Below, in pieces: positions 3,067-60,209 of a stretch of DNA of 64,000 nt (position 1 is its first letter; every line of letters begins with the position of its first letter). The stretch comes from Alphaproteobacteria bacterium (GTDB lineage: Bacteria; Pseudomonadota; Alphaproteobacteria; Rs-D84): contig WRCA01000002.1 in the NCBI GenBank assembly GCA_009784275.1, positions 4,783 through 68,782 of the forward strand, read 5' to 3'. Made by a program: the position numbers and the translations under genes. The notes beneath the pieces are model-generated. The model worked only from the letters and a program-made list of their open reading frames with translations. It made no database searches and had not been told where the DNA came from.

Positions 3067-3713
3067 TATTTCCCCGCCTTTATTTCTTTATATTTTTTCA
3101 CGATTTCCGGAATTATGCTTTCGTAAGGATAGTCGTGCCCGTTTACGCGACATTCAGCCTCTAGATATTTTATCCTGACGCCCGCCGCCGCATAGACTTT
3201 ATAGCAATCGGCATATTCTTTCGGCAAAATACAGTCGCCAATTCCCGCAACCCAGATTATAGGGGTGCCGGTGAATTTTATATCCCGCTGAATCAGGAAC
3301 GCTGGGTCTTGACCGCAAAGAGATATCACGCACTTAACAGGCTGATGCTGCAAGGCCATGCGCGCCGCTTGATCCGCGCCTTGGGAATGACCCGCGAAAA
3401 TAACATCGGACCAATCAAGATTCAGACGTTTTAATTCTTTTTTCGTTTCCTGGATTATATGCTGCGCGGATGCTGGCAGCTCTGCCAACGCTTTCTTTAT
3501 GGCTGCTGGCGTGGCTTTATAAACGCCGTTTTCAGCCACCGGGACATCATGCCACATAAATCCGCCGCGCGGCCGGCTGCCCGGATGTGGCGCGTCGATA
3601 TTCAACAAGTGCACGTCCAAGGCATTCACCAACTCCGTGCGAAATTTAGTATCACGATTATGGTCGTAACAAAATCCGGCAAGCCAAACAAGTAGCGGTT
3701 TTTTATAGGCCAT
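3066..3713 (-). CDS. alpha/beta-hydrolase, phospholipase/carboxylesterase-family esterase
   Basis: 215 aa; nucleophile elbow GHSQG (FAGHSQGADQAA) and a late His; stop overlaps the gatB start (TAATG). Confidence 0.75.
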   Translation of the reverse strand: MAYKKPLLVWLAGFCYDHNRDTKFRTELVNALDVHLLNIDAPHPGSRPRGGFMWHDVPVAENGVYKATPAAIKKALAELPASAQHIIQETKKELKRLNLDWSDVIFAGHSQGADQAARMALQHQPVKCVISLCGQDPAFLIQRDIKFTGTPIIWVAGIGDCILPKEYADCYKVYAAAGVRIKYLEAECRVNGHDYPYESIIPEIVKKYKEIKAGK

Positions 3714-3714
3714 T

Positions 3715-4296
3715 TTATTTTACCCCTCTTAAATTTTCGAAAAAGTTTTTATGCGTTGCGCCAAACCAAAGGGTTTCTTGTTTTTTGCTTTCCACGAAGG
3801 CCTGCGCAGCTTTTGCGGCCTTTTTCTGCTGAAACGGCCCAGGAAAGAAATCCGTCGATATTATCAATATCTGGAATCCGTTTAATTCTCGTAATAATCT
3901 GCACTGTTTCTTCGACACCGGGCTTTCTGCAAGCAAATCGTCGGAATGCTTATTCGCATATGCTGTTTTGATACCGGAACCTCCGATTAATATATGGAGG
4001 TCGTTCGGAAAGGCTTCATAAATTTTAAATGCTTTCAAAATTATATCTTGCCAGCCATATCCTTTAATTCCGTAATTATCTTTTTCTTTGAAGTAGTCTT
4101 TCTTACAGCCTATATGCACCGGCCGGAAATTTGCATGATCATCTTTGCTGGCCAAATGATTTAAATATTCATAAATCTTTTTTGCAAAAGCTTCATCCGC
4201 GCCACGGTCGTTCTGAACCCAAACAAGCTGTTGATCGCGGTCGCGCGCAAGTGTTGCTGCCTGTTTTAAGTCATAAAATTGTTCCAATATAAGCAT
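3715..4296 (-). CDS. hypothetical protein (193 aa), possible Rossmann-like nucleotide-binding fold (GGSG loop)
   Basis: ORF with gene-like codon usage, packed between the NUDIX and esterase genes (3-nt and 1-nt gaps); no recognisable family by eye. Confidence 0.55.
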   Translation of the reverse strand: MLILEQFYDLKQAATLARDRDQQLVWVQNDRGADEAFAKKIYEYLNHLASKDDHANFRPVHIGCKKDYFKEKDNYGIKGYGWQDIILKAFKIYEAFPNDLHILIGGSGIKTAYANKHSDDLLAESPVSKKQCRLLRELNGFQILIISTDFFPGPFQQKKAAKAAQAFVESKKQETLWFGATHKNFFENLRGVK

Positions 4297-54933: not shown

Positions 54934-55158
54934 GTGGCCATGAGTCAATGCACAGGCGATTGTGAAAATTGTAAAAATGTTCCCGGGTCCACCAGTCCGG
55001 TGCAAGTCTACAATATTAAGTCCGGACTGAAAGACGTAGCAACTGTATTAGCTATTTTAGCTTTATATGTCGGATTTGTCGCAGCTTGGACTAACTGGGA
55101 TAAGCGTAAAGAAGAAAACAAGAATATAAACAAAATAGAAAACGTAAAACAACAATGA
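54934..55158 (+). CDS. small Cys-containing membrane protein (74 aa)
   Basis: ORF track; CxxxCxxC N-terminus plus one TM. Confidence 0.35.
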   Translation: MAMSQCTGDCENCKNVPGSTSPVQVYNIKSGLKDVATVLAILALYVGFVAAWTNWDKRKEENKNINKIENVKQQ

Positions 55159-55190: not shown

Positions 55191-55352
55191 ATGAAAAAGA
55201 ATAAAATTGAAATTAATTTATCTAACGAGTTATTAAAAAAACTACTTATGGTAATAGGGACACTTGCGTTTGCCCTCGGGTGTATCAGTTGTAATAAAGA
55301 CAATGTACAAAAGCAGATAAAAGAAAAAATATGCAATGAAAGACAACATTAG
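55191..55352 (+). CDS. putative mini-lipoprotein (53 aa, FALGC lipobox) overlapping the lepA start
   Basis: Hand-translated: [53 protein letters not shown]; AGAGGTG RBS. Below the ORF-track length cut-off. Confidence 0.3.
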
Positions 55353-57129
55353 AAATTTTGCAATTATTGCTCATATCGATCATGGAAAGTCGACTTTGTC
55401 TGACCGGATTATCGAATACTGTGGTGGGTTGGAATCGCGCGAGATGAAGGCACAAGTCTTGGACAGCATGGATATCGAACGCGAACGCGGAATTACAATC
55501 AAAGCGCAAACCGTTCGCCTTAACTACAAAGCGAAAGATGGTCATACATATCAATTGAATTTGATGGATACGCCCGGGCATGTGGACTTTACTTATGAAG
55601 TATCGCGGTCGTTGGCGGCATGCGAAGGCGCGCTGTTACTGGTGGATGCTACGCAGGGCGTTCAAGCGCAGACTTTGGCAAATGCCTATCTGGCGATTGA
55701 TAATGATTTAGAAATTCTTCCCGTGCTGAACAAGATTGATTTGCCTTCCAGCGATGTTTGTTCCACACGTGATCAGATTGCGGATGTTATTGGGCTGGAT
55801 GCGTGCGACGCGCTGTGTGTTTCTGGAAAAACGGGTGAGGGCGTATCAGAGTTACTGGAAACAATAGTGCAGAAATTACCAGCGCCGCATGGAAATGTGA
55901 ATGCGCCGACACGGGCGCTGTTGGTGGATTCTTGGTATGATTCTTATTTGGGCGTTGTGGTCTTGGTGCGCGTGGTCGATGGCGCGTTAAAGCGTGGGCA
56001 AAAAATTAAATTCATTGCAACCGGTGCGGAATATAATATTGATAAAATCGGATACTTTACGCCGAAAATGGTGAATGTCGATACTCTGCACGCGGGCGAA
56101 GTCGGATTTATTATCACAGGCATGAAGACGATTCATGATTGTAAAGTCGGTGACACCATAACAGATTCAAGGGCGGAAAATATTCCTCCATTACCGGGAT
56201 TCAAGCCATCCATTCCTGTTGTGTTTTCTTCATTCTTTCCGGTAGAAGCGGATGATTATCCGACGTTGCGTGACAGCGCGGAAAAATTAGCGCTGAATGA
56301 TGCCAGCTTTGTATTCACTGTGGAAAAGTCATCTGCGCTGGGATTCGGATTACGCTGCGGGTTCCTTGGTCTGCTGCATATGGAGATTATTTCGGAGCGT
56401 TTAAGCCGAGAGTTTAATCTTAATCTTATTAATACGATTCCATCGGTGTTGTATAAATTGCACTTGCGTGGCGGAGAAATTATCGACTTGGAGAATCCCG
56501 CCGACATGCCTGATCCGGGGCGGATCGATTTTATCCAAGAACCTTGGGTGCGCGCGACAATCATGCTGCCAGAACAATACATTGGCGGCATTATGGCGCT
56601 GTGTTCGGAACGCCGAGGGATTCAGGAAAATATGAGCTATGTTGGGCGGCGCGCGGTTTTGACTTATCGTCTGCCACTGGCAGAAATAGTATTTGATTTT
56701 TATGATCGCGTGAAGTCATTAACATCCGGATATGCAAGTTTTGATTATGTGCTGGATGGATATGAAACCAGCGACCTTGTAAAAGTTTCTGTTTTGGTGA
56801 ATGAGGAAGTTGTAGAGCCTTTGTCATTCTTGTGCCATCGCAGTTTTGCGGAAAAGCGCGGCCGTCAGATTGTAGAAAAATTGAAGGATTTAATTCCTCG
56901 GCATCAATTCAAGATTCCTCTGCAGGCGGCGATCGGCGGAAAGATAATTGCGCGCGAAACCATCGCGGCATATCGTAAAGACGTAACAGCAAAATGCTAT
57001 GGCGGGGATATTTCCCGCAAACGTAAATTGTTGGAAAAACAAAAAGAAGGCAAAAAGCGCTTGCGTTCATTCGGCAATGTCGAAATCCCGCAAACCGCGT
57101 TTATAAATGCTTTGAAGGTTGGAGATTAA
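55336..57129 (+). CDS. lepA: elongation factor 4 (LepA)
   Basis: 597 aa; N-terminal [18 protein letters not shown]-domain and LepA C-terminal domain. Confidence 0.95.
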
Positions 57130-57595
57130 ATATATAGGGGGGAATATATATGAAACAAAAGGAAAAAAAGTGGGAATCGTAAGAATCATAAAGGCCGCAG
57201 TAAATTACTATCACGCAGAATCAAAATATCTTGATGCCTCAAGCAATTTGGAAAATGCCCGCCGTAAGATAATAGCCCCGATTGAAATAGTTAACGGGGA
57301 AGACTTTAATCGCTATAAGTCCGGAAATCATGACCGGCGCAAATATTACTTTTGCAAATATCCGATTTGTCATAAAGAGCTTTGGACTGTCGGGGATCAG
57401 GAAGCGTTCCATTTTAATCGTCATGATCTTGTTTGTGGAAATTTTGAAGACGGGAAGCCTTGTGAAAATAAAGATTGTGTAACTCGTCAAAAAGACAACC
57501 ATAAATATCAGACATGTTACAGCAATTATACCGCGGCCAAGACGCACAAGCAGAGATGCTGGAAGGCTATATTTACCAGAAACCCGAAAAAATAA
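57119..57595 (+). CDS. hypothetical Cys-rich protein, paralog A (ends [12 protein letters not shown])
   Basis: ORF track; the true start may be GTG at about 57169. Confidence 0.5.
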
Positions 57596-57607
57596 GAGGG
57601 ATAAAGG

Positions 57608-58009
57608 ATGAAATTTATAGAAACCATAAAAGACTACTTTTCCGCAAGGACCGCTTATCAGATCGCTTTGGGCAAGTTGGTAATTGCTGGTTATGAAATA
57701 AGAGGGTATCAGGACGTTTCCGAAGAAGAATTCAGAAGCTATAAGTCCAGAAAACAAAAACGAGATCATTGCATACATGTCGTTAATTATATAGAGGATA
57801 AGGATGATGGGGAATATAGGTGGTTTGAATCTCACGAATTGTTTTGCTACTGTGAAAATTTTGAGGGCAAGAAATTGTGTAAAGATAAAGAGTGCCCAGG
57901 CCATAAAAACTATCGTAGACACCACAGATGTTACAACAATTATATCAAGGCCGAGAAACACATGAAAGAATGCTGGAAGGCTATATTTACCAGAAATCCG
58001 AAAAAGTAA
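57608..58009 (+). CDS. hypothetical Cys-rich protein, paralog B (ends [12 protein letters not shown])
   Basis: ORF track; AGAGGG RBS. Confidence 0.5.
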   Translation: MKFIETIKDYFSARTAYQIALGKLVIAGYEIRGYQDVSEEEFRSYKSRKQKRDHCIHVVNYIEDKDDGEYRWFESHELFCYCENFEGKKLCKDKECPGHKNYRRHHRCYNNYIKAEKHMKECWKAIFTRNPKK

Positions 58010-58011
58010 GA

Positions 58012-59013
58012 ATGTCGCATCAATTTTTCTTTTCACCGCATATTATTGGAAGCTTGCCTGTGCCAGCGACTGGCTTTGATGTGGTGCAAGATATTGCAGA
58101 ACCACGCTTGCGCTTGTATATAACTTCGCGCGGGATTAAGACTTTTTTTACACGCAAGCGGGTTCGCGGGCGCGACGTTCGTATAATTATCGGCCGCTTT
58201 CCTGATGTTTCCGTAGAAGATGCCCGTAATGCGGTTTCGGAAAAGATCGCGGAATCCGCCGCACCGGTTAAAGTTCGCCGCAATCGTATCGTTTTCGACA
58301 GATTATTTGCCATTTATCTTTCCCGCAAAGTCAACAGGACCGAAGAAAGCCTGATGAAACTGAAACGCACCGCATCGCGTCATTGGGCATCCTTGATGCA
58401 GCGAGAAGTTGCAGATATCACTTCGGATGATCTGGCAGCGATACATGAAAAGATTTCCGAAACTGCTGGCATTGCGACCGCAAACCGCATGCTGGAAATT
58501 TTAAAGAGCATGTTCAAGTTTGCAATAGAGCAGGGACATATAACCAAAAATCCTGCTGCCGATCTGGAGAAATTTACCGAAAATCGCCGTCATCGTGATT
58601 TAACCAATGAAGAGTTTTCGCGTCTTATGAACGCCATCAAGAAAGAAAAGAATTATACTCTACGCTCGGCTTTCCTGATGCTGGTATTTGGGTTTGCCCC
58701 AAAGTCTGCTATTTTTGCCATGCGCTGGCGAGATTTTGATTTTAACAGTGATACCTGGCTGGATCGTCCCCTGTCCGACCCGGCGGTTGTATTATTGCGG
58801 AATGTTCCTCAATCTGGAACTTGGGTGTTCCCCAGTCGCGGACGGCACCTGACTGATCCGCGCAAGGCTTGGGCGGGTCTGGTGCGCAAGGCTGGCTTAT
58901 TGGATGTTCAAATGAACGATATTTACAAGCATTTATCCCGAAATCTTGCTTGGTCCGCCGATCGGGAGCAATTAAGGGCGAATATGAACGAGGTAATTGA
59001 CCATTTGTTATAA
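58012..59013 (+). pseudogene. tyrosine recombinase/integrase remnant (N-terminal SAM-like plus partial catalytic domain, truncated before the Tyr nucleophile)
   Basis: Integrase-like blocks (LTNEEFSRL, WRDFDF, VFPS, HxxR) present; Box I Arg replaced (GFAPK); the ORF ends about 20 aa before the expected catalytic Tyr. Confidence 0.5.
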
Positions 59014-59027
59014 TTTGTTATAAAACT

Positions 59028-59057
59028 TGACATGGGGGGCGGCAGAGTGGTATCTTA
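59028..59057 (+). promoter_or_regulatory. sigma70 promoter TTGACA-18-TATCTT for acpP
   Basis: Read from sequence. Confidence 0.55.
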
Positions 59058-59125: not shown

Positions 59126-59407
59126 ATGAGTACTTTTGACAAAGTTCAAGCGATAATAGTCGAAAAATTAGGCGTTCCAAAAGAAAAGGTCACCATGGAC
59201 GCAGAATTTATCGCAGACTTGGGCGCAGACTCGCTGGATACGGTCGAATTCATTATGGACGTTGAGAAAGAATTCAATATCACAATTCCAGATGATGCCG
59301 CTGCAAAGATGAAAAAGGTTAAAGATGCCGTCGACTATATCGATGCACATTCAAAGCCTGCTGGCGGTGCGAAAGCGCCGGAAGCAAAACCTGCTGCAAA
59401 AAAATAA
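59126..59407 (+). CDS. acpP: acyl carrier protein
   Basis: [10 protein letters not shown] motif; adjacent to fabF; Ala/Lys-rich C-terminal tail. Confidence 0.9.
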   Translation: MSTFDKVQAIIVEKLGVPKEKVTMDAEFIADLGADSLDTVEFIMDVEKEFNITIPDDAAAKMKKVKDAVDYIDAHSKPAGGAKAPEAKPAAKK

Positions 59408-59438
59408 AAAATCCCGCAAAAGCGGGATTTAATTTTTT
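59405..59438. terminator. bidirectional terminator AAAAAATCCCGC-AAAA-GCGGGATTTAATTTTTT
   Basis: Between convergent genes. Confidence 0.75.
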
Positions 59439-60092
59439 CTAGCGGAAATAAAGTCCCCCGCAAATTCCCCACACAAACAAGTTATGTCCGGAATATGTAA
59501 TAGAAGAATTGTCTTTTTTTCCATCAATCGCCATCCCAACATTCGTCGATAGGCCGATAAATAGGGCCGGCACTTCGCTGCTTTTCGGATTAATAATGAA
59601 TTTAAGATCAACAGGGATTGATAGTTGGTTTCTGTTACCAGCTTTTCCGATTTCTTTTGTATTTGATATAAACCGCCTGATCCCAGCGCCAGTGCTGATA
59701 TCTATCGCAATTATTTTGCCAAAGCCAAATTGCAATGCAGCCATCGGAACGAATTCTATGTACATGCCGTCAGTGTATCCCTCGCCAAAACTTCCGTCCG
59801 GGCAGGTAAAAGATGAAAATTCTGATCTGCTTCCAAAGCCGACTCTGCCGGCCAGGCCCCAATCAATATCGAACTTTCCTTTGCTTTTAGCGTTGACGTA
59901 ATAAATAGTTTCCAGCCGACCGGCGGTTTCTGACTTATTTTTATTTGTTTTGCCGAACAGCATTGATGGTCCGAAACAAAAGCCGGATTCTTTTCCTTTG
60001 AAAGGTTTTACATTTTGCGCATCCGCTTTCTTTGGGGCAAAGCTGAACAATACGATGAATGCCATTAATAAGGCTTTTTCAAAATTTTTCAT
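59439..60092 (-). CDS. outer-membrane beta-barrel protein (OmpW/OmpA-like small barrel)
   Basis: Signal peptide ...KKADA; amphipathic strands; ends GGLYFR. Confidence 0.5.
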   Translation of the reverse strand: MKNFEKALLMAFIVLFSFAPKKADAQNVKPFKGKESGFCFGPSMLFGKTNKNKSETAGRLETIYYVNAKSKGKFDIDWGLAGRVGFGSRSEFSSFTCPDGSFGEGYTDGMYIEFVPMAALQFGFGKIIAIDISTGAGIRRFISNTKEIGKAGNRNQLSIPVDLKFIINPKSSEVPALFIGLSTNVGMAIDGKKDNSSITYSGHNLFVWGICGGLYFR

Positions 60093-60209
60093 GATTGATA
60101 TAATATCCAAAATAATTAATTTGTCAATATTAATTTGATCTTTTACAAACTATTTGCGGGGCTGATATTTTCTGATAGTATTTGCGTAAGACCAATAAAC
60201 GGAGTTTTC

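Follow-up and report, generated by a model that had tools for sequence, protein, structure and literature searches.

The DNA analyzed here, a stretch of 64,000 nucleotides (nt) from contig WRCA01000002.1 of an alphaproteobacterium of the order Rs-D84 (assembly GCA_009784275.1; hereafter the window), carries two small genes, OrfA and OrfB, in the gap between lepA and a gene of the tyrosine recombinase family, which we call int-like. Both encode cysteine-rich proteins of one family, here named Cys4. The two genes are intact members of this fast-evolving family, which, wherever found, is held in zero to five tandem copies at a single chromosomal slot. We lean, by a modest degree, toward an overall reading that adds to this, more tentatively, a role of the proteins as co-transcribed zinc/nucleic-acid accessory factors to the Int-like protein.

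Organization of the Locus

The conserved lepA gene (EF4; 55336-57129, +), identified from the list of open reading frames (ORFs) and the order of the locus, anchors the variable slot upstream, and the likewise conserved int-like gene (58012-59013, +), which encodes 333 amino acids (aa) with a lambda/P4-type three-domain architecture by Pfam and Foldseek, anchors it downstream. The next conserved gene is acpP (59126-59407, +). Within the slot lie OrfA (57170-57595, +; 141 aa; GTG start; public protein P0002) and OrfB (57608-58009, +; 133 aa; P0001), which are recovered by the family hidden Markov model (HMM) at E 7e-24 and 9e-22, respectively, and are the two adjacent same-strand ORFs that an earlier reading of this sequence (the original prediction) had described. 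The Cys segment of OrfA spans 57353-57478 (+), with C62 at 57353, C89 at 57434, C98 at 57461, and C103 at 57476 and a predicted beta-hairpin between C62 and C89; the segment of OrfB, placed by alignment to OrfA, spans 57770-57895 (+), with C55 at 57770, C82 at 57851, C91 at 57878, and C96 at 57893 (DNA repeat family D3). Each gene closes with a copy of one dodecapeptide-coding sequence and its stop codon, at 57553-57597 (+) in OrfA and 57967-58011 (+) in OrfB (DNA repeat family D1), the second copy ending 1 nt before the int-like ATG. In public records the members are hypothetical proteins, and the pair bears locus tags FWE50_01400 and FWE50_01405 in the source metagenome-assembled genome (MAG).

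As a mechanical ORF, OrfA begins at a TTG at 57119 and overlaps lepA. Its true start is likely the GTG at 57170, preceded by AAGGA and giving the N-terminus MGIVRI, since the product is then that of the public gene call P0002, and the related proteins P0003 and P0004 also begin with MGI. Some public calls start the Int-like protein at 57970 (P0006, 347 aa), which would overlap the OrfB tail; we place the start at 58012 because of the family-wide N-terminus M(S/A)HQFFF. That ATG lies 2 nt downstream of the OrfB stop, and the corresponding distance is 0 nt in locus L003 and a 4-nt overlap in L085; the int-like gene is probably translationally coupled to OrfB. No terminator-like site occurs from lepA to the end of OrfB; further on, the int-like gene contains a single one, a weak stem of 5 bp at 58062-58074. 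Because terminator-like sites are absent up to the end of OrfB, and acpP is bracketed by its own promoter-like site at 59027-59056 and by a terminator-like hairpin at 59409-59430, OrfA, OrfB, and int-like probably share a transcript with lepA.

An antisense ORF of 265 aa (57239-58036, −) covers both OrfA and OrfB and contains a repeated stretch of 14 residues that mirrors the tail repeat; the antisense ORFs of related loci are shorter. It is likely spurious, since the plus-strand frame has the conserved Cys motif and an omega (the ratio of nonsynonymous to synonymous divergence) below 1. An alternative plus-strand frame is also repeated (57514-57696 versus 57928-58011, beginning MLQQLY), owing to the tail DNA repeat. 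No Rfam RNA family was matched across OrfA, OrfB, or the tail repeat.

Every Cys4 Family Member Found Lies in One Slot

Related loci were sampled mostly through the int-like gene, by scanning one genome per species and fetching 80 of 249 species loci. Slot ORFs were counted on the plus strand, from a length of 90 aa upward, in the lepA-to-int-like gaps of 84 related loci and the window, and were assigned to families by iterative HMM. The original prediction had named a search for further members as the check on its pair, with decaying duplicated pseudogenes that lack homologs as the outcome that would undo it. Further members were found, in number and under purifying selection (see below): 123 of the 138 slot ORFs belong to one Cys4 family, and the family HMM detected no other member in the 64-kb window. 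The order lepA, gap, int-like, acpP holds in 79 of the 84 loci, the contig ending before lepA or acpP in the other 5, and the gap varies from 3 to 2285 nt. Among 80 genomes, 15 have no family copy, 34 have one, 16 have two, 11 have three, 3 have four, and 1 has five. The copies are tandem and co-oriented, with spacers of 10-30 nt that contain only ribosome-binding-like sequences. In the fetched flanks, only three HMM matches fell outside the scored gaps, each directly upstream of int-like on a contig without lepA, and two proteins found by the family profile and not via the int-like gene (P0127 and P0129) occupy the same slot. Every family member found thus far sits between lepA and int-like.

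Database searches returned little beyond this clade. An exhaustive search of 1.8 billion representative proteins for family relatives matched only OrfB, P0003, P0004, and one spurious repeat protein (P0005); P0003 and P0004 have lepA upstream and a 331-aa integrase-like gene downstream, followed by acpP and fabF. A word-prefiltered collection of 5.8 billion proteins, queried with single proteins and with a 40-member profile, gave almost only self-matches because of that prefilter, and two members compared by tblastn with 50,697 phage genomes had no meaningful match. Metagenome contigs held no exact match to the back-translated tail pattern; a shorter pattern gave 120 single-match contigs, but the 80 that were fetched contained no family member, so we regard these as chance matches. 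The hosts are gut, rumen, and termite-gut Alphaproteobacteria MAGs, many of them named Candidatus Enterousia, a lineage of Rs-D84, an order for which genome sizes of 0.67-1.6 Mb are reported and a symbiotic or parasitic way of life has been proposed (PMC12306168). The alphaproteobacterial lepA/int-like/acpP locus also occurs in records titled "uncultured Muribaculaceae bacterium" (L005-L008 and L054, including OZ246409.1, a 716,531-bp chromosome), with Int-like proteins 50-67% identical to that of the window; these organism names look wrong, as from mislabeled bins.

The slot occasionally accepts unrelated cargo, always co-oriented with lepA: NUDIX, Fic/RhuM, S51 peptidase, and ACP-like proteins and, besides these, a four-helix-bundle protein and an unknown of 234 aa (L086:1601-2581, L094:1261-3776, L001:6589-7101, L009:~3297-4004, L020:3594-3959, and L014:2979-3608). 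Two gaps without a full-length cassette have unusual contents. At L029:~143-213 a 71-nt gap consists largely of GACAC/GACAG simple repeats. At L083:210-352 a 35-aa ORF, MKWFDYLRKTPVAQRFDGLKIVCAGYWANKFTRVK, fuses the aromatic N-terminal motif of the family straight to its tail motif and would be either an internal-deletion remnant or a minimal "termini-only" protein.

Diverged Paralogs Share a Tail Held Fixed by Selection

OrfA and OrfB are 35% identical (BLASTP E 2e-19) and, as originally proposed, are diverged tandem paralogs; both are intact and retain all conserved residues. Outside the tail, identity by codon position is flat (54, 61, and 57%), with nonsynonymous divergence (dN) of 0.57, synonymous divergence (dS) of 1.0, and omega ~0.57. 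The last 12 residues, by contrast, are identical, as had been noted, and alignment of the two DNA copies shows just two synonymous differences, the identity extending through the stop codon. The 35-nt core of this repeat occurs exactly twice in the window versus 0 expected (100 shuffles), in direct orientation and 414 nt apart.

The original prediction offered gene conversion or strong selection as the cause of this identity, and only selection is borne out. The tail has 0 nonsynonymous changes in ~30 nonsynonymous sites, compared with a proportion of 0.40 (pN) elsewhere, an outcome with a probability of ~3e-7. Where the two proteins have the same residue, the codon is also the same at 10 of 12 positions in the tail and at 27 of 36 outside it (Fisher P 0.71). 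Codon identity exceeds the saturated synonymous expectation in the tail (5.8 expected, P 0.009) and in the rest (17.8 expected, P 0.001), which argues for a moderately old duplication of the whole pair. Conversion limited to the tail is unnecessary, given that synonymous similarity is no higher there than elsewhere and that the tail is a family-wide motif. The body has diverged rapidly in protein sequence, and the tail has been held fixed by strong selection.

Across the family the C-terminus follows the pattern [KR][KR]-N-F-W-x-N-K-F-x-x-V-K-stop, with the stop codon exactly ten residues past the Phe in 55 of 77 members with the W motif and a mean net charge of +4 over the last 16 residues. 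To judge from these alignments, the dodecapeptide common to both paralogs is a derived local version of the family motif.

A Conserved Integrase Homolog That Is Probably Inactive

The original prediction had placed the pair between lepA and a truncated tyrosine recombinase. The position is correct; the truncation is not. An AlphaFold2 (AF2) model of the Int-like protein, built from 44 sequences (predicted local distance difference test, pLDDT, 84), matches full-length lambda integrase (1z1b_A) with a Foldseek E value of 2.9e-8 over 336 columns, and the three-domain fold (arm-binding, core-binding, catalytic) is present. Pfam Arm-DNA-bind_3 and Phage_int_M score above their cut-offs, and the catalytic domain reaches only E 0.009. 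The search for relatives gave 593 matches; the best 120, from which lengths and identities were taken, are all at least 49% identical and 331-350 aa long, except P0024 (243 aa, 73% of the query). A relative was detected in 249 genomes, each of a different species in the one-genome-per-species scan. The gene has an omega of 0.05-0.14 in the same genome pairs that were used for the cassettes, and it is kept where the slot is empty, the distance from the lepA stop to the int-like start then being 3-37 nt.

The residues needed for recombination are nonetheless missing from the fold. At the catalytic Arg-I ("TGxR" box), the column of lambda Int Arg212 holds Pro230, and across the family it holds P (most members), R, C, or I, so that it is not conserved. 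The H-x-x-R position of box II reads (N/D)-D-(V/I)-(Y/H/C)-K, and after residue 310 no nucleophilic Tyr is conserved in the 44 sequences; both were mapped by eye and from helix positions in the model, because no HMM alignment extends into that region. A profile of the C-terminal domain recovered no recombinase or integrase among PDB sequences, and the XerD model scores the protein at 33.6 bits against a cut-off of 329.6. Pro230, the replaced box II, and the lack of a conserved C-terminal Tyr speak against an active tyrosine recombinase. The Int-like protein is probably a domesticated, catalytically inactive integrase homolog and, from its retained domains, one that presumably still binds DNA.

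The loss of catalytic residues could also be taken as a sign that the locus is what the original prediction suggested, the decaying cargo of a dead integrative element beside its integrase, with the tails kept alike by gene conversion. Near-identical tail DNA and cassette remnants in some lineages, such as the 35-aa head/tail-motif fusion at L083, point the same way. This account is contradicted by the data, and we give it almost no credence: the length and position of Int-like after lepA are kept in at least 249 species with omega 0.05-0.14 and a full-length fold, both ORFs are intact and orthologous cassettes have an omega of 0.08-0.36, and synonymous similarity in the tail is not above that in the rest of the gene. 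A simple remnant of an integrative element was rejected on similar grounds, with omega well below 1 and neither flanking att repeats nor a tRNA gene at the locus; the window contains no tRNA gene and no flanking repeats besides the two tails.

A second alternative retains activity for the homolog. On this account the slot would be an integron-like platform, in which Int-like, through non-canonical chemistry or by directing another recombinase, inserts promoterless cassettes between the lepA stop and its own start. The boundary between variable and conserved DNA falls exactly at the int-like ATG, the copy-free genomes have the short 3-37 nt junction described above, all cargo is co-oriented and tightly packed, and cassettes move between lineages; like integrons, the locus has promoterless, co-oriented small cassettes beside a tyrosine-recombinase-family gene, and its content differs between close relatives. 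Integrons, however, have attC sites and an active IntI, whereas here no attC-like or inverted repeat lies between cassettes, most members have Pro at Arg-I, the HxxR is replaced, no C-terminal Tyr is conserved, and the C-terminal-domain profile fails to find recombinases. The int-like gene is also co-directional and downstream, not divergent; the cassettes are paralogs of one family; and the integron integrase 2a3v matches Int-like only at E 0.03-0.15 (Foldseek). Homologous recombination through the flanking core genes accounts for the mosaics described next, and we regard the integron-like account as highly improbable.

Turnover and Exchange of Slot Cassettes

Comparison of 22 orthologous cassette pairs yielded omega values of 0.08-0.36 for the 20 in which it was computable (dS was saturated in two). 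The cassettes are working genes under purifying selection, and they evolve roughly three times faster than the int-like gene. Their histories can differ from that of their neighbor: cassette dS versus int-like dS is 0.13 versus 1.33 for L034/L047 and 0.25 versus 0.98 for L014/L017. In L034/L047, identity is 93-100% over the lepA 3′ end and the first cassette and then falls to ~55% at the cassette end; this mosaic breakpoint is a sign of exchange by recombination. L085, whose Int-like protein is 89% identical and which is the nearest relative known for the window, has other cargo in the slot, with DNA homology starting exactly at the int-like ATG, and cassette GC content is lower than flank GC. 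Cassettes are replaced or exchanged between lineages.

This behavior is also what would be expected of conflict genes, and an alternative that we consider unlikely, without dismissing it, is that the slot is an accessory hotspot resembling rAID-1, in which the Cys4 proteins are immunity, antitoxin, or anti-phage factors in an arms race and are unlinked to Int-like. It would explain a copy number of 0 to 5, rapid turnover even among close relatives, exchange as seen in cassette dS far under flank dS, a paralog omega of 0.57, lower cassette GC, and the presence of Fic/RhuM, NUDIX, and a four-helix-bundle protein in the same slot. The rAID-1 loci of gut Bacteroidales combine a conserved XerD-like recombinase with co-oriented, low-GC gene arrays, the stated criteria being a 5′ XerD-like recombinase at least 44% identical to BF9343_RS08045 and at least two co-oriented low-GC downstream genes (bioRxiv 10.1101/471110). 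The likeness is real in outline: gut bacteria, a conserved tyrosine-recombinase-family gene, and beside it co-oriented, lower-GC, copy-variable, small, fast-evolving genes with signs of horizontal exchange.

In detail the two differ. The rAID-1 recombinase is XerD-like, presumably active, and 5′ of arrays that mix many immunity families and have repeated intergenic sequences; in the lepA slot the homolog is lambda/P4-type with an arm-binding domain, degenerate and apparently catalytically dead, and 3′ of an array of essentially one family, whose 10-30 nt intergenic spacers hold no repeated element. Membership in rAID-1 is therefore rejected, co-orientation and lower GC being the only criteria in common. 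Against a conflict role more generally, PADLOC gave no match, and neither the slots nor the few kilobases of flank fetched on each side showed a toxin gene or the remnant of one. The original prediction had also named a toxin as a possible role of the Cys4 proteins themselves; nothing supports this, and they match no PADLOC, Pfam, NCBIfam, or PHROG family.

A Predicted Cys4 Head on a Helical Stalk

To characterize the proteins themselves, we compared 40 diverse members. Family proteins are mostly ~105-175 aa long and basic, with a mean net charge of +7.7. In OrfA numbering, all 40 have C89, C98, and C103, and 38 have C62; an aromatic residue occupies position 92 throughout (F in 35 of 40), and N110, Y113, and Y120 are frequent, giving the core motif C-x2-F-x5-C-x4-C(P)-x4-N-x2-Y-x2-A-x3-Y. 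Of the Cys/His scaffold first read from the pair, the cysteines stand as a family feature, whereas the listed histidines are not conserved. The cysteine spacing, C-x~26-C-x8-C-x4-C, includes no conserved CxxC pair, which speaks against the zinc ribbon of the original prediction.

An AF2 model of OrfA, built from 8 sequences (mean pLDDT 81.6, predicted template modeling score 0.68), contains a helix at residues 2-34, a small strand and helix, a beta-hairpin at 63-74/77-88, and a last helix at 101-135. C62 and C89 flank the hairpin on its two sides, and C98 and C103 stand just ahead of the last helix. Antiparallel pairing of the first and last helices is predicted to form a stalk, with the hairpin and four Cys as a head at its tip; since the arrangement of the Cys around the hairpin and last helix suits a metal site, the modeled head would most likely be a Zn(Cys)4 site. 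Heptad-like spacings run through the N-terminal I..D..EY..L and the C-terminal Y113, A116, Y120, F130/W131, and F135. Because the conserved terminal residues fall on these spacings, we read the tail as the last layer of the core, a putative clasp that would close the stalk beside the conserved N-terminal motif. Proteins with the FWxxK tail tend also to have an aromatic extension at the N-terminus, x(W/V)FxY(L/I)xxTP, in 50 of 65 versus 4 of 43 cases, an association confounded by subfamily descent, and this co-occurrence fits a contact between the termini.

The same basic, aromatic termini (WFxYLxxTP and FWxNKFxxVK) could instead be a foot at the membrane interface, comparable to the amphipathic targeting helix of MinD, or a C-terminal secretion signal, in which case the proteins would be surface proteins or effectors aimed at the host of an obligate symbiont. 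The distance of the tail from the C-terminus is fixed and its net charge is about +4, some tail variants (RRAFVRGLFVRTK and RRECFCALFGKRR among them) resemble amphipathic anchor helices, the N- and C-termini co-vary, and a symbiotic or parasitic life has been proposed for the lineage (PMC12306168). The tail has only a modest hydrophobic moment, however, of 0.39 versus a control mean of 0.31 and 90th percentile of 0.53; its conserved residues occupy a/d positions of the predicted coiled coil, so that a structural role would suffice; and no signal peptide was evident by eye in the listed N-termini (secretion systems were not examined). We judge membrane anchoring or export improbable and prefer the reading of the tail as a stalk clasp.

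Library and fold searches gave one lead to function. OrfA and OrfB match no Pfam, NCBIfam, or PADLOC model, their best PHROGs match is a family of unknown function at only E 0.064, and the 40 members searched against Pfam gave scattered coiled-coil noise, the gp32 model not being among the families listed at E up to 1. With the OrfA model as query, no Foldseek match in PDB or BFVD reached an E value of 1e-3; the leading ones, ATPase gamma/D stalk subunits, resemble it only in how the terminal helices form a hairpin. Among PDB sequences, in turn, the family profile ranked T4 and RB69 gp32 at the top, at sub-threshold E values of 0.12-0.37, over the zinc region of gp32. Three Cys, N(+6), Y(+9), Y(+16), and (F/Y)W(+26/27)-x-N coincide in the alignment, and hhalign against seven gp32 sequences gave a probability of 37% and P 3.5e-4, below significance.

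Zinc in the 1995 crystal structure of gp32 is reportedly bound by His64, Cys77, Cys87, and Cys90. The order of elements (ligand 1, beta-hairpin, ligand 2, loop, ligand 3, short spacer, ligand 4, helix) is the same in the Cys4 family, and both are basic proteins. The spacing differs, C-x9-C-x2-C in gp32 versus C-x8-C-x4-C in the family, as does the first ligand, a His 12 residues upstream in gp32 and a Cys 26 residues upstream in the family. Moreover, gp32 has an oligonucleotide/oligosaccharide-binding (OB) fold, whereas the Cys4 model is a helical stalk with a hairpin and no predicted OB fold; Foldseek listed no gp32 or OB-fold structure among its matches, and gp32 was not in the best 50 from the PDB. 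We treat the sequence resemblance as a lead toward a zinc/nucleic-acid-binding module and make no family assignment.

Proposed Working of the Locus

We tentatively propose a mechanism, doubtful as yet, in which the Cys4 proteins would be zinc-stabilized, basic nucleic-acid-binding accessory factors that are expressed with the Int-like protein and modulate it. lepA, the Cys4 genes, and the int-like gene would be read from one transcript, with translation of Cys4 and int-like coupled. The Cys4 proteins may then cooperate with or modulate Int-like, a protein that retains the arm- and core-binding domains and lacks the catalytic residues. Paralogs would vary in stalk and head while the terminal clasp stays constant, and copy number could shift by unequal recombination between the conserved tail-coding repeats and also by homologous exchange via the flanking core genes.

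Several observations weigh against an accessory role. The family has no significant sequence or fold match to any characterized protein (Pfam, PHROGs, PADLOC, NCBIfam, Foldseek); the gp32 likeness is sub-significant, with a different Cys spacing and no predicted OB fold; and the OrfA model is based on 8 sequences. Fifteen of 80 genomes have the int-like gene and no family copy, which argues that Int-like does not need the Cys4 proteins. Unrelated cargo shares the slot, so what the family is associated with could be the slot and not Int-like. The loci, moreover, were sampled mostly via the int-like gene itself, and coverage consists of the slots and the fetched flanks.

Two known systems offer partial parallels for an accessory role. 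As in the lambda xis-int operon, a small basic protein is encoded directly in front of a lambda-type Int gene to which its own gene is coupled, and Int-like has the arm-binding, core-binding, and C-terminal domains of lambda Int. Lambda Xis is a winged-helix protein of ~70 aa without cysteines, whereas the slot holds 0-5 copies of a ~105-175 aa Cys4 protein with a predicted helical stalk; unlike lambda Int, Int-like lies outside any mobile element and is apparently inactive. A study of Tn7-like transposons is said to have described tyrosine-recombinase homologs as target selectors, in which the fold is kept for DNA recognition and not for recombination. Those selectors belong to a transposon, Int-like to a chromosomal core operon, and no Cys4 protein array is known to accompany the Tn7-like homologs.

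A bolder version, which we regard as a long shot, would make the slot a DNA-transaction or gene-capture module: a non-canonical Int-like protein would recognize the junction, and gp32-like zinc stalk proteins that bind single-stranded DNA would help to acquire, rearrange, or regulate cassettes; alternatively, the slot could be a new defense system.

Other Features of the Window

Upstream of lepA, a 74-aa ORF (54934-55158, +) begins with a Cys-rich stretch, MAMSQCTGDCENCKNV, continues through a hydrophobic segment, and ends in a tail rich in Lys, Glu, and Asn; by the family HMM it is unrelated to the Cys4 family. Downstream, a strong bidirectional hairpin at 59396-59443 (AAATCCCGC-loop-GCGGGATTT, with T-runs on both sides) separates acpP from a convergent gene for an outer-membrane-protein-like product (59439-60110, −) and is likely a terminator common to both.

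Implications

The Cys4 family has no name in the libraries and no detectable relatives outside one clade, and it is tied to a single chromosomal slot. A variable array beside a tyrosine-recombinase homolog is of a known kind, represented by integrons and rAID; this version differs in that the homolog, although apparently dead, is a core gene, that the array consists of a single family, and that its position is fixed within the lepA operon of small-genome symbionts. An integrase homolog has been retained as a core gene across an order with small genomes, in which useless genes normally disappear, and a hypervariable array in so streamlined a genome marks a function under conflict or rapid adaptation. 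The locus offers an entry point to the biology of the uncultured Rs-D84/Enterousia gut symbionts, and if the Int-like and Cys4 proteins do cooperate, it would be a new example of the exaptation of recombination machinery.

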